Positions 4,774 to 6,517 of a stretch of DNA of 64,000 nucleotides are shown piece after piece (the first letter of the stretch is position 1; each line of letters starts with the position of its first letter). The stretch lies in the NCBI RefSeq assembly GCF_050920415.1, contig NZ_CP169309.1. One strand, written 5' to 3'. A program made the translations under genes and the position numbers. The notes beneath the pieces were generated by a model, which ran no database searches, was not told the DNA's origin, and saw nothing but the letters and a program-made list of their open reading frames with translations. The stretch is from Escherichia coli. GTDB lineage: Bacteria; Pseudomonadota; Gammaproteobacteria; Enterobacterales; Enterobacteriaceae.

Positions 4774-5433
4774 ATGATCCGCAACCAACATATTGATTCT
4801 GCAATTTCGGGACGTTACACTGTTCCTGCACCTTATAAAGCGGGTGCCGGGGGTCGCAGCCCGGAATTGCATACGGCGATATATGACGCGCCAGCGTCTT
4901 TTTTATCGTCCGCGCTCACGCACGCCAGAATTATGGTGGGCTGGGCAGGGGAGCCGAAAGGCTCGCCGGTTTCCGTATGCGCCGGTACTGCGAACCCTGT
5001 TCAGTTCACCACCCATGAGTTTCGCAGCTCCGGTGGTGGAAGTTATCCATTGCATACGGAGGCTGCCATCATGGCTACAGTCCCAACTTCCCCATACCTG
5101 AAAATCGAAGTCGTCAACGGCAAAGCTGTTATTTTCTCCCTGCATGTTGCCTGCCACTTTAAGCGCATGCACCAGAACATCGTCGACAAAATCGAGTATC
5201 TGAACTGCTCGCGTGAATTCTTCTCCCGTAATTTCATACCGGGTACTTACCACGTGTATGGCGATTCCCTGCGTGGTTATTACATCACCCTTGATGGCCT
5301 GATGATGCTTCAGCTTGGGTTAAGTCTGCGCACAATGCGGTACTACGAGAGCTGTATTGAAGCATTCCATGAGGCTGAAACCAACCTGAATCACACTGTT
5401 TTCCGTCGTAATCAATGGGAGGTGCGCCCATGA
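4774..5433 (+). CDS. Rha-family phage regulatory protein with ~100-aa N-terminal extension (paralog 1)
   Basis: Rha-like core (EVVNGKAVIFSLHVACHFKRMHQNIVDKI...YYITLDGLMML); start MIRNQHIDSA shared with paralog 2. Confidence 0.6.
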   Translation: MIRNQHIDSAISGRYTVPAPYKAGAGGRSPELHTAIYDAPASFLSSALTHARIMVGWAGEPKGSPVSVCAGTANPVQFTTHEFRSSGGGSYPLHTEAAIMATVPTSPYLKIEVVNGKAVIFSLHVACHFKRMHQNIVDKIEYLNCSREFFSRNFIPGTYHVYGDSLRGYYITLDGLMMLQLGLSLRTMRYYESCIEAFHEAETNLNHTVFRRNQWEVRP

Positions 5434-6287
5434 TTCGCCAACATATTGATTCTGCACTTTTGGGACGTTACACTGTCTCTGCACCTTATAAAGCGGGTGC
5501 CGGGATTGGCGTCCTGAAATTCAATATAGAGCATAACCGCGCTCATGCGGTTTTTTCGTGTCATGAGCATTGCTACGCCCAAATTATGGTGGGGCGTGCA
5601 GGGGCATCGCAAGATGCGCCGGGTTCTATGTTGACCGGTTACGCCAACCCTGTACGTCTCACCACCTCTGTGATTGGCGTCCCATGTGGTGAGTTCTTTG
5701 AATTCAACATAGGGGCTGTCACCATGACTACTCTCCCAACCCTCTCTCAACCTGAAATTGCGATCGTTGATGGTCAGGCTGTTACATCTTCTTTGGCTGT
5801 TGCTGACTTCTTCTCTAAACGTCATGACGATGTTCTGAAAAAGATCCGCATTTTGGATTGTTCTCCAGAGTTTTGTGCCCGCAATTTTGCGGAGACATCA
5901 ATTTTGGTACACCAGCCCAACGGCGGTACTCGCAAACTTCCTTGCTACCACATCACCCGCGATGGCTTCGCGTTCCTGGCAATGGGCTTTACTGGCAAAC
6001 GTGCAGCCCGGTTCAAAGAGGCATACATCAACGCCTTTAACCAGATGGAGAAGAATTTATCTGGTGCTGACGCGGTTGATATGTCAGCTGTTGCACGAAA
6101 CGCCAGAGGCGTATACCTGCATTTGCGTGAAATCCATCAAATCTGGATAAGCCAGCTTTATCCAATGCTTAAGGCCGTTGAGTCACCGCTGGCTGGCAAA
6201 CTGTACGACCGTGTAGGTGATGCTGTTTTTGGTGCTGCACTTGTTGATTCCAGACTGAATGGTTCTGACAAGGAGGTGCGCCCATGA
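5430..6287 (+). CDS. Rha-family phage regulatory protein with N-terminal extension (paralog 2)
   Basis: Rha-like core (IAIVDGQAVTSSLAVADFFSKRHDDVLKKI...YHITRDGFAFLAM); N-terminal region (MIRQHIDSALLGRYTVSAPYKAGAG) near-identical to paralog 1. Confidence 0.6.
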   Translation: MIRQHIDSALLGRYTVSAPYKAGAGIGVLKFNIEHNRAHAVFSCHEHCYAQIMVGRAGASQDAPGSMLTGYANPVRLTTSVIGVPCGEFFEFNIGAVTMTTLPTLSQPEIAIVDGQAVTSSLAVADFFSKRHDDVLKKIRILDCSPEFCARNFAETSILVHQPNGGTRKLPCYHITRDGFAFLAMGFTGKRAARFKEAYINAFNQMEKNLSGADAVDMSAVARNARGVYLHLREIHQIWISQLYPMLKAVESPLAGKLYDRVGDAVFGAALVDSRLNGSDKEVRP

Positions 6288-6517
6288 TCCGCCACATCGT
6301 TAATTCCCTGTATCACCGATACAACCGTTGCCCCCGGGTGGGGCAGTGGTTCACCACCAGCAACGGCCACGTTCTGCGGGTTTGCCTGGTCAATACAGAA
6401 AGCCAGAAGGTTGTCTGCCAGGTTCAGGGACGTACTCATACCCTGAGTTATCCGCTGGTGGCGTTTCAGTCCGGAAAAATGTTTAAACGCCTGGGAGGTG
6501 GCTATGCGTCCGTCTGA
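6284..6517 (+). CDS. Hypothetical 77-aa protein sharing the MIRxH start/junction of the Rha paralogs
   Basis: Begins at the third copy of the junction GGAGGTGCGCCCATGATCCGCCA; overlaps the start of the O-like gene. Confidence 0.4.
   Translation: MIRHIVNSLYHRYNRCPRVGQWFTTSNGHVLRVCLVNTESQKVVCQVQGRTHTLSYPLVAFQSGKMFKRLGGGYASV

Follow-up and report, generated by a model that had tools for sequence, protein, structure and literature searches.

Two tandem Rha-type genes of an Escherichia coli lambdoid prophage, each probably controlled by its own IsrK-C4-type antisense RNA switch

The analysed region most probably consists of two tandem, self-contained antisense RNA switches of the IsrK-C4 type, each controlling one Rha-family (antirepressor-type) gene; we put the probability of this reading at roughly 85%. 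Within an E. coli lambdoid prophage, the region occupies part of the early rightward operon, with cro/ant/lar on one side and the replication genes on the other; all features described below are on the plus strand of the window, i.e. the whole 64-kb stretch of DNA that was analysed. The kind of switch, an IsrK RNA together with a C4 antisense RNA, is already known from P1, P4 and Gifsy-1. For the tandem arrangement of two modules, no description was found in the literature.

The ORF list of the window contains adjacent long frames at 4753/4774-5433 and 5415/5430-6287, which the original prediction described as two Rha-like cores preceded by a conserved extension of ~100 amino acids. The adjacent frames, their Rha-type C-terminal parts and the similarity of the extensions are real, but the extension is mostly RNA and not an N-terminal domain of Rha. 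Each rha gene (5071-5433 and 5724-6287) is preceded by a leader of ~300 nt. In a pairwise alignment, stretches of ~297 and 294 nt before the two cores matched with a single 3-nt indel, at 67% identity as DNA versus 44% as translated protein. The similarity thus extends well beyond the junction sequence that separates the modules, and is not confined to it. Both leaders contain an Rfam isrK and an Rfam C4 match above the respective gathering scores. The conserved ~100-residue stretch is the promoter, the IsrK-like small RNA, its terminator, the C4 antisense RNA and the target sites of the latter. The motif MIRxQHIDSAxxGRYTV is the translated TTGATT-17-TACACT promoter region, and “IMVG.AG...” is the translated 5′ strand of the C4 stem.

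Module 1 begins with a predicted σ70 promoter at 4793-4821 (TTGATT, 17-nt spacer, TACACT), the −10 hexamer of which ends 6 nt upstream of the start of the IsrK-like small RNA 1 (4828-4904; isrK RF01394, 58.8 bits against a gathering score of 50). This RNA carries two decoy sites complementary to the C4 RNA of the same module, a1 (4854-4859) and b1 (4869-4876), and ends at an intrinsic terminator found by the terminator scan at 4885-4904. The C4-type antisense RNA 1 follows at 4929-5016 (C4 RF01695 of clan CL00128, 83.3 bits against 45), with its pairing segments in the b′ loop (4967-4981) and the a′ segment (4988-4994). A GGU motif at 4935-4937 marks the expected C4 5′ end, at which RNase P would release the RNA, and the AUG at 4933 is the counterpart of the first orf45 AUG in Gifsy-1. 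The target sites, located by complementarity, are a2 (5021-5027) and b2 (5051-5065), of which b2 covers the Shine-Dalgarno sequence GGAGG (5058-5062) of rha1. The b′-b2 duplex comprises 15 bp when G-U pairs are counted and 9 bp when only Watson-Crick pairs are, and a′-a2 comprises 7 bp. The short rha1 gene (5071-5433) encodes 120 residues from the ATG behind the covered Shine-Dalgarno sequence, in frame with the long ORF from 4774, and matches phrog_995 (E 3e-57).

Module 2 repeats this order. Its predicted promoter (5446-5474) has the same two hexamers and 17-nt spacer, inferred in the same way, and is followed by the IsrK-like small RNA 2 (5481-5557; 61.9 bits against 50) with a1 at 5506-5512 and b1 at 5521-5532, both pairing with the C4 RNA of module 2, and a terminator at 5535-5557, likewise called by the terminator scan. 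The C4-type antisense RNA 2 (5582-5669; 80.1 bits against 45) has an AUG at 5586, the b′ loop at 5623-5634 and the a′ segment at 5641-5647; the complementary targets are a2 (5674-5680) and b2 (5704-5714). Here, b2 extends over the purine-rich stretch (5709-5714) that forms the ribosome-binding region of rha2 (5724-6287), which encodes 187 residues from the core ATG, in frame with the long ORF from 5430, and matches phrog_821 (E 1e-102).

Each promoter agrees with the consensus at 8 of 12 positions, too few for the consensus promoter scan to call it, and the promoter assignment is based on positional conservation. A promoter-like site occurs at a fixed position in most of 111 related modules, with hexamers that differ and are often better, and the promoter region of module 1 aligns with the PisrK region of Gifsy-1 (TTGACA...TATATT). 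The Rfam c4-a1b1 model stayed below its threshold in the leader (22.6 versus 46.7 bits), while isrK covers the same stretch above its own.

Both C4 copies form a long outer stem enclosing two hairpins. Between C4-1 and C4-2, the 27 base pairs show six compensatory changes and no broken pair. Among 61 unique related C4 sequences, 99.3% of the predicted pairs are standard, versus 34-44% when the partners are slid, and double changes were observed at 13 of the 27 pairs.

The b′ and a′ segments match b2/a2 and b1/a1 within each module, and no such pairing exists across modules. The calculated duplex energy of C4-1 is −41.0 kcal/mol with its own target and −17.2 kcal/mol with that of module 2; the corresponding values for C4-2 are −26.7 kcal/mol (own) and −17.6 kcal/mol (module 1). 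The b′ loops of the two RNAs read CCGTATGCG and TCTATGTTGA. The same preference was seen in 110 related modules, in which b′-b2 pairing of at least 7 nt was present in 100 of the 110 cognate pairs versus 2.5% of the non-cognate ones, and a′-a2 pairing in all 110 versus 24%. Loops and targets co-vary over the 111 related modules, which contain 37 types of b′ loop and 53 combinations. The changes can be followed most directly between module 1 of the window and module 2 of a related phage (L001): the two leaders are nearly identical, with the differences clustered in the six a/b zones, where concerted three-way changes convert GCATACGG to GTCAACGG and TTCGCAG to TTTGCAC. In silico, the a/b sequences thus appear to set the specificity, with matching changes in the RNA and its targets. 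Since the a/b sequences of the two modules differ, each C4 RNA should control its own rha only and, judged by complementarity, the modules should be orthogonal, like the heteroimmunity types of P1 and P7. The suggestion of a diverged specificity holds insofar as the two paralogous modules differ, but the difference lies in RNA-RNA pairing (a′/b′ loops versus a/b sites) and not in the protein. Tandem orthogonal antisense arrays with dozens of natural specificities and clean three-site co-variation would represent a natural library of orthogonal RNA regulators, and would make it possible to test for diversifying selection on RNA-RNA recognition in phage immunity.

We propose that each module is transcribed from its own promoter into a short IsrK-like RNA ending at the intrinsic terminator, and that read-through transcripts extend into the C4-like RNA and rha. 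By analogy with c4 of P1/P7 and the CI RNA of P4, the folded C4 RNA would expose b′ and a′ for pairing with b2 and a2, which lie shortly before rha, and, as b2 covers the Shine-Dalgarno sequence, Rha would not be translated. The IsrK-like RNA, carrying the target copies a1 and b1, could in turn pair with the C4 region and relieve the repression, as does IsrK in Gifsy-1. The antirepressor function of the Rha-family proteins is assumed from annotation, and the activity of Rha1 and Rha2 as antirepressors would follow from it.

The closest counterpart is the isrK-orf45(STnc1160)-anrP locus of Salmonella Gifsy-1, for which the IsrK-mRNA pairing was mutationally tested by Hershko-Shalev et al. 2016 (PMC4825925). 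The leaders align end to end, including the promoter position, IsrK with its terminator, the C4-like RNA, a2/b2, the Shine-Dalgarno sequence and the start codon. The a′/a1/a2 sequence of module 2 is identical to that of Gifsy-1; both loci have an AUG at the C4 5′ end and a phage regulator gene downstream. In the window, however, the downstream protein is of the Rha type and not homologous to AnrP (BLASTP of Rha2 against STM2616 gave E 1.6, by which a homology was rejected), and the leader ORF runs on into rha in the same frame, whereas orf45 of Gifsy-1 ends at an AUGA overlap. Moreover, the Gifsy-1 locus lies downstream of antQ, while that of the window precedes the replication genes in the early operon and has two tandem modules with different b′ loops. 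IsrK/C4 homologues in lambdoid Salmonella prophages were noted by Barquist et al. 2013 (PMC3632133).

A similar plan has been reported for the immI operon of P1/P7, a1b1-c4-a2b2-icd-ant (Citron & Schuster 1990, as relayed in PMC5320573 and PMC8201110). As far as these accounts describe it, the operon shares with the window the C4 fold with a′ and b′ loops, a1/b1 sites before C4 and a2/b2 sites after it, the b2 site lying over a ribosome-binding site, an antirepressor-type gene downstream, and specificity types set apart by a few nucleotides of the loops, with the targets changing to match. We obtained the same Rfam isrK and C4 matches in a P1-like plasmid as in the window. Unlike P1/P7, the window has neither icd nor a separate coupling ORF of the orf45 type, and the frame from the C4 AUG runs directly into rha. 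The controlled protein is Rha and not the Ant of P1, and each module has an IsrK terminator and is repeated in tandem in a chromosomal lambdoid element.

The reading frame of the leader is the feature that a simple P1 model does not explain. In 51 of 51 close E. coli relatives (~16 lineages at 90% identity), the frame is open throughout, and all 4-5 indel sites of this subgroup are 3 or 6 nt long. Column shuffling predicted a stop in ~60% of the leader sequences, a figure that overstates the significance because the sequences are related by descent. Since the frame is always open in this subgroup, the leader is probably also translated. A frame that is maintained, yet unconstrained, across RNA genes is an unusual signal. 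It agrees with a dual use of the leader, in which the RNA switch would also be obligatorily translated from the junction ATG or the C4 5′ AUG in frame into Rha. The passage of ribosomes, by melting C4, IsrK or the terminator, or by preventing Rho termination, would be regulatory, long and short Rha isoforms would arise, and the amino-acid sequence would be irrelevant. A strong Shine-Dalgarno sequence and the ATGA overlap stand ahead of the module 2 leader ORF, and each rha shares its reading frame with the C4 AUG of its module (4933 or 5586). In Gifsy-1, anrP is translated only if orf45 is translated from the corresponding AUG, and the conservation of orf45 is seen in its nucleotides and not in its protein (PMC4825925). 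Nevertheless, the open frame is confined to one subgroup, as the leader frame contains stops, within or just after C4, in 41 of 111 more distant modules. We regard dual use as quite possible, though somewhat less than probable.

An orf45-type leader ORF conserved in all modules was considered and rejected, the ORF from the C4 AUG ending at scattered positions in the distant modules.

A more speculative extension, which we hold to be rather doubtful, is that the “Ash domain” of the E. coli Rha/Ash proteins is an RNA switch kept translatable by selection regardless of the encoded peptide. Ribosomes coupled at the ATGA junction, or starting at the C4 5′ AUG, would traverse the promoter, IsrK, terminator and C4 sequences before entering rha, and their passage, not the peptide, would override the antisense control on transcripts derived from upstream. 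Stacked orthogonal a/b switches might then give the prophage an array that can be shuffled, whose elements would act either as antirepressor switches, each addressed independently, or as immunity RNAs directed in trans against several types of phage.

The immunity region of the phage-plasmid P4 (seqA-CI RNA-seqC) matches Rfam isrK and C4, ordered and spaced as in the window, and its translation matches Phage_ASH, as do those of the window leaders. The CI RNA of P4 brings about premature transcription termination of the replication operon. The main role of the C4 RNAs of the window might similarly be to terminate transcription, or to confer immunity in trans against other phages or satellites, and not to repress the translation of their own rha. 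Besides the shared isrK + C4 pair, the intrinsic terminator between IsrK and C4 in both modules agrees with such a role, and the 37 loops in 53 combinations suggest an arms race of the immunity type. A defence against satellites was suggested by Barquist et al. (PMC3632133). Unlike in P4, however, b2 overlaps the ribosome-binding site directly before the Rha gene, which it does in both modules, as in P1. A search of the 64-kb window for further C4 targets returned only single chance 8-mers, and no other b2-type site with an adjacent a2. The two modes are also not mutually exclusive, termination or immunity being compatible with translational repression. We consider a mainly terminating or immune role unlikely.

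We must also consider that the extensions are a real N-terminal “Ash” protein domain fused to Rha and duplicated along with it, the RNA family matches being incidental. The annotation resources favour such a domain. Pfam Phage_ASH (PF10554) matches both extensions (E 3.3e-17 and 5.6e-12), PHROG families 995, 821 and 3960 include the extension, and PGAP calls an “ash family protein” at these loci; the frame is, moreover, open in the 51 relatives, with every indel a multiple of three. However, the leader lacks third-position periodicity (entropy by codon position 0.615/0.602/0.631 versus 0.89/0.73/1.18 in the core), and its pN/pS is ~0.87 versus 0.63 in the core, where both core values come from a pooled alignment of the two core types. 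The higher identity of the leaders as DNA than as protein and the stops in distant modules also disagree with a domain. The same leader precedes unrelated proteins (AnrP in Gifsy-1, Icd/Ant of the P1 type, the P4 operon), the P4 ORF that matches Phage_ASH overlaps the CI/C4 RNA, and the PGAP “ash family protein” of the P1-like plasmid sits on c4 of its P1-type immI operon. Finally, Rha homologues in other phyla begin at the core, distant homologues of Rha2 (Paenibacillus, Pseudomonas and Vibrio phages) aligning from core residue ~12, and no match to the Ash-Rha2 ORF was found among solved structures. The NCBIfam library that was searched contains no “ash” model, and its Rha model alone matched. 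The leader does not behave as a protein domain under coding constraint, since the openness of the frame alone is conserved, in the one subgroup, and we judge a genuine Ash domain very improbable.

Recognition of the RNA leader explains the “Ash domain”. The widely used family of Pfam Phage_ASH, the PGAP “ash family protein” and several PHROGs labelled “transcriptional regulator” is largely the translated IsrK-C4/CI RNA locus. PF10554 also served as the marker of the epsilon component in a survey of P4-like satellites. In the study of the Stx “Eru” phages (PMC8951638), Ash was treated as a protein domain of unknown function. The Rha/Ash genes of these phages are of the same type, adjoin the immunity region in E. 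coli Stx phages and have close DNA matches to the window; unlike in that account, we identify the Ash region of the window as an IsrK-C4 RNA leader. The RNA leader thus indicates how Rha-type genes next to the Shiga-toxin phage immunity region are really controlled, a matter relevant to prophage induction. An Rfam search of a conserved open stretch upstream of the Stx-phage leaders, which is absent from the window, gave no match.

The proteins themselves belong to the Rha family with different certainty. Rha2 matches Pfam Phage_pRha (PF09669) with E 1.6e-26 (93.1 bits), and Rha1 with E 2.7e-6; in NCBIfam TIGR02681 (cut-off 45.95), Rha2 reaches 90.9 bits, while Rha1, at 40.1 bits, falls below the cut-off and is for this reason a borderline member. 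The modules are paralogous, but the duplication is not recent, as the cores are only 42% identical and of unequal length (120 and 187 residues). That a recent tandem copy is decaying, with the shorter and weaker-scoring rha1 as a pseudogene remnant, is hardly credible in view of this divergence, the intact RNA elements and cognate pairings of module 1, the recurrence of the 120-residue core, its length unchanged, in many arrays and, as the sole module, in the E. coli prophage L124, the coding periodicity and pN/pS of the pooled core alignment (both core types), and the presence of each window module elsewhere with different partners.

The modules are joined by an exact 23-mer, GGAGGTGCGCCCATGATYCGCCA, which contains the last rha codons (EVRP), the Shine-Dalgarno sequence GGAGG and an ATGA stop/start overlap. 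It occurs at the end of rha1 (5418-5440) and again at the end of rha2 (6272-6294), where the ATGA overlaps orf77. The original prediction had counted three copies, near 4770, 5420 and 6275, of which the first was not confirmed. The site near 4770 (4762-4784) differs from the 23-mer at 11 of 23 positions, with ATGATCCGC.A alone in common, and no further match with up to three mismatches was found in the window (none is expected by chance). By contrast with this count, the claim that the last copy starts an unrelated ORF of 77 residues was correct, as orf77 has no likeness to the modules past the 23-mer; a homology beyond it was rejected, the local alignment score being equal to the shuffle mean. 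orf77 (6284-6517) is a conserved small phage gene of unknown function (phrog_1153, E 2e-43) that comes after the last module; its end extends beyond position 6498, where the replication-initiator gene starts. It also follows a module or array in L001, in a second related phage (L002) and in 12 junction contexts.

We surveyed the junction motif in 1.33 Mb of related phage loci. It is not common in unrelated contexts, as 19 of the 21 distinct occurrences coincide exactly with the end of a module Rha gene, and it terminates most Rha cores in related E. coli phages. The 23-nt junction may thus be read as a conserved Rha gene end, a strong ribosome-binding site and an ATGA overlap that would couple translation to the next gene, and it could also serve as a short homology box at which modules are added, lost or swapped. 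The proposed recombination-prone exchange of modules found support, the module boundaries acting as exchange points. The number of modules is one, two or three in related phages that share the downstream orf77 and replication genes, and the modules of one array always differ in a′ or b′. In L124, which is 99.7% identical to the window, the match ends at 5432, at the junction between the two modules to within a few bases.

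Two orthogonal IsrK-C4 antisense switches, as predicted from RNA pairing, make up the locus; they are located 5' of two different Rha genes, and the pair was assembled through module exchange at conserved junctions. The ORF listing contained two long ORFs on the same strand, at 4753-5433 and 5415-6287, followed by a 77-aa ORF (orf77, 6284-6517) and the replication-initiator gene from 6498. The original prediction described the long ORFs as Rha paralogs with a shared N-terminal extension. This observation was largely real. The Rha parts (rha1 and rha2) are 42% identical in protein and unequal in length (120 vs 187 aa). 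The leaders in front of them aligned over 4774-5070 and 5430-5723 with a single 3-nt indel (67% DNA and 44% protein identity), and the similarity was not confined to the junction.

Both leaders matched the same two RNA families. The isrK family (RF01394; Rfam gathering score 50) was found at 4828-4904 in module 1 (58.8 bits) and at 5481-5557 in module 2 (61.9 bits), and C4 antisense RNA (RF01695; gathering score 45) at 4929-5016 (83.3 bits) and 5582-5669 (80.1 bits), respectively. Under the Rfam C4 structure, C4-1 and C4-2 differ at 13 paired positions; both sides changed in six of the 27 pairs, one side in a single pair, and no pair was broken. Each IsrK-like element ends 3' with a hairpin and a T-run, and a terminator scan independently placed terminators at 4885-4898 and 5535-5552. 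A TTGATT-17-TACACT site lies 6 nt 5' of each IsrK start (4793-4821 and 5446-5474); the consensus promoter scan did not call these sites, which are too weak. A promoter-like site was located at equal distance in most of 111 related modules, with different and often better hexamers (e.g. TTGACA-18-TATAGT), and it aligned with the Gifsy-1 isrK promoter region. Given the position of this site, the peptide motif that had been taken to define the extension is mostly a translated promoter: 'HIDS' spans TTGATT and 'RYT' spans TACACT, the remainder being translated IsrK and C4.

Each C4 presents a hairpin loop (b') and a single-stranded segment (a') complementary to sites just 3' of the same C4 (b2 and a2), and second copies of these sites (a1 and b1) are located within each IsrK-like RNA. 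For module 1, the partner of b' (4967-4981) is b2 (5051-5065), which covers the GGAGG at 5058-5062, 8 nt 5' of the rha1 ATG (5071), and that of a' (4988-4994) is a2 (5021-5027). The corresponding partners in module 2 are b' (5623-5634) and b2 (5704-5714), the latter just 5' of the rha2 ATG (5724), and a' (5641-5647) and a2 (5674-5680). The determinants were GCAUACGGA in module 1 vs UCAACAUAG in module 2 for b2, and UUCGCAG vs UUGGCGU for a2. A search for cross-pairing between the modules at the a and b sites found none. The predicted duplex energies of C4-1 were -41.0 kcal/mol with target 1 and -17.2 kcal/mol with target 2; those of C4-2 were -17.6 and -26.7 kcal/mol. The proposed divergence in specificity thus stood, carried by the a/b RNA sequences in the predicted pairing.

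Scanning viral contigs with a pattern for the conserved C4 stem yielded 120 loci, and an nhmmer search with both window leaders as the query yielded 133 modules, 111 of them unique. These 111 related modules contained 37 b' loops and 25 a' segments in 53 combinations; three different a' segments accompanied the b' loop of window module 1. In 100 of 110 cognate pairs, b' and b2 were perfectly complementary over 7 nt or more, vs 2.5% of non-cognate pairs; the corresponding a'-a2 figures were 110 of 110 vs 24%. Among 61 unique C4 sequences, 99.3% of the pairs were standard, vs 34-44% with slid partners, and double changes occurred at 13 of the 27 C4 pairs. The clearest single case of concerted change is window module 1 compared with module 2 of an E. 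coli O121 locus, whose leaders are near-identical except in six a/b zones, with matched changes in three places each for a and b. From the window to O121, b1 and b2 changed from GCATACGG to GTCAACGG, with b' changing from CCGTATGC to CCGTTGAC; likewise, a2 changed from TTCGCAG to TTTGCAC, a1 from TCGCAG to TTGCAC, and a' from CTGCGAA to GTGCAAA. Because three sites must change in step for each a/b type, the many a'/b' combinations suggest either recombination within the leader or repeated concerted change.

The reading of the shared extension as a protein domain was wrong, as the leaders are IsrK and C4 RNA. In 45 unique close relatives, no codon periodicity was found in the leader; the entropy by codon position was 0.615/0.602/0.631 vs 0.89/0.73/1.18 in the Rha core, and pN/pS was 0.87 vs 0.63. 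The frame was closed in or just after C4 in 41 of the 111 more distant modules. Rha homologues of other phyla start at the core, and unrelated proteins follow the same leader type, e.g. Gifsy-1 AnrP, which showed no similarity to Rha2. We read the leader conservation as acting at the RNA level. Pfam Phage_ASH and several PHROGs match both leaders, and the PGAP name for ORFs of this kind is 'ash family protein'. The phage P4 ORF that matches Phage_ASH (E 8e-16) is the old 'cI gene product, transcriptional repressor' CDS (L123 8168-8584, minus strand), which coincides with the C4/CI RNA match. In the P1-type immI operon of the P1-like plasmid p95JB1A, an 'ash family protein' (L125 1501-1620), directly 5' of icd and ant, overlies the C4 match (1497-1584). 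In consequence, PF10554, used as the epsilon component marker in a survey of P4-like satellites, and the PGAP name seem to be largely a translated RNA gene.

Within the subgroup of close E. coli sequences, which comprises ~16 lineages at 90% identity, the leader frame was open in 51 of 51 sequences, with lengths of 294, 297 or 300 nt and 4-5 indel sites, each of 3 or 6 nt; column shuffling gave an expected stop in ~60% of these sequences. The AUG at the C4 5' end (4933 and 5586) corresponds to the first orf45 AUG and shares the reading frame of rha. Leader translatability is probably under selection, through a mechanism that we infer. The leader's open frame extends 60-100 codons further 5' in many Stx-type phages (L002 2321-2497 in an Stx1 phage; many IMG/VR loci, e.g. 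L025, L034 and L009), and leader plus extension are annotated as a 340-aa 'antirepressor Ant'. The extended frame (~310 nt 5' of the leader) contains a conserved ...GSxKHSxLSIFAKTTRMSALVLCGNSGVILLSVK... of odd, non-protein-like composition; an Rfam search of this stretch, which is missing from the window, gave no family match.

The junction had been proposed to occur three times. The 23-mer GGAGGTGCGCCCATGATYCGCCA was exact at 5418-5440 and 6272-6294, with no further copies when up to 3 mismatches were allowed (0 expected by chance), and the site near 4770 differed at 11 of 23 positions, sharing only ATGATCCGC.A. The junction thus occurs in two copies, one on each side of the second gene. Its motif encodes the C-terminal EVRP, a GGAGG and an ATGA stop/start overlap, and it is both a functional translational-coupling sequence and a short homology box. 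A relaxed motif was found in 21 distinct contexts in 1.33 Mb of related loci, 19 of which were the exact end of a module's Rha gene, followed by another module in 7 cases and by orf77 in 12.

Module exchange at junctions, also part of the original prediction, was borne out. Between the same flanks, the Stx1 phage and a near-identical E. coli prophage (L124) have one module, the window two, and the O121 locus three. Over window 1-5432, L124 is 99.7% identical, and divergence begins within a few bases of junction 2; in other genomes, the match breaks at 5509 or 5666, within the module 2 leader. The modules of one array differed in a', b' or both in every array examined. Of 121 viral loci, 8 had two modules. 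In 84 of 5426 complete E. coli genomes, a single place covered 80% or more of the two-module query, and 1621 contained some part of it. In L124 (8428-8891), a different 77-aa ORF replaces module 2 and is followed by a second 77-aa ORF.

The homologues in Gifsy-1, P4, P1 and Salmonella mean that this kind of system is already known. The P1/P7 immI operon has the same architecture as the window modules; its C4 RNA is processed by RNase P, the b' loop occludes the ribosome-binding site, and the a' loop confers specificity (PMC5320573; PMC8201110, secondary sources). P4 and the P1-like plasmid gave isrK and C4 matches as in the window. As reported by Barquist et al. (PMC3632133), IsrK and C4 are structural homologues of P4 seqA and CI RNA, present in some lambdoid Salmonella prophages. 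The Gifsy-1 isrK-orf45-anrP region aligned with the window leaders from promoter through start codon. In Gifsy-1, IsrK has its own promoter, part of the transcripts read through the IsrK terminator, STnc1160 is a stable RNA from the orf45 region, and IsrK, by pairing with the long transcript, switches on orf45 translation and, through coupling, that of anrP (PMC4825925). The authors pointed out a resemblance to P4 SeqA/CI, and conservation of orf45 in nucleotides but not in protein (PMC4825925). By alignment, their tested pairs, IsrK G28/G31 with C162/C159, would map to a1 and a'. The Gifsy-1 isrK locus (L126 33513-34375, minus strand) has the a-type of window module 2 (ACGCCAA / UUGGCGU) and a different b-type. 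If the a-type alone allows partial cross-talk, RNAs of prophages in different genera could interact. In a limited literature search, we did not find descriptions of tandem arrays of modules differing in specificity, of direct Rha gene control by an IsrK-C4 switch, or of a reading frame that stays open over the RNA genes.

The window is a lambdoid prophage of E. coli, and the near-identical prophage in L124 adjoins yecE. A CI-type repressor (2494-3189, minus strand) and a cro-region regulator (3317-3616) are located 5' of an ORF6N/KilAC antirepressor gene (3693-4547; phrog_63, E 1e-45) and a Lar-like restriction-alleviation gene (4544-4756), the latter directly 5' of module 1. Module 2, orf77, the replication initiator, a helicase loader and a DnaB-type helicase follow in this order. 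With the antirepressor and Lar genes immediately 5' of module 1, three antirepressor-type genes are consecutive in the early operon. The ORF6N protein and Gifsy-1 AnrP have the motif 'LWTERGAAR' in common. Two sRNAs matched at Rfam gathering level on the plus strand 3' of the replication genes, STnc490 at 11891-12005 (72.3 bits) and STnc100 at 12205-12393 (114.5 bits).
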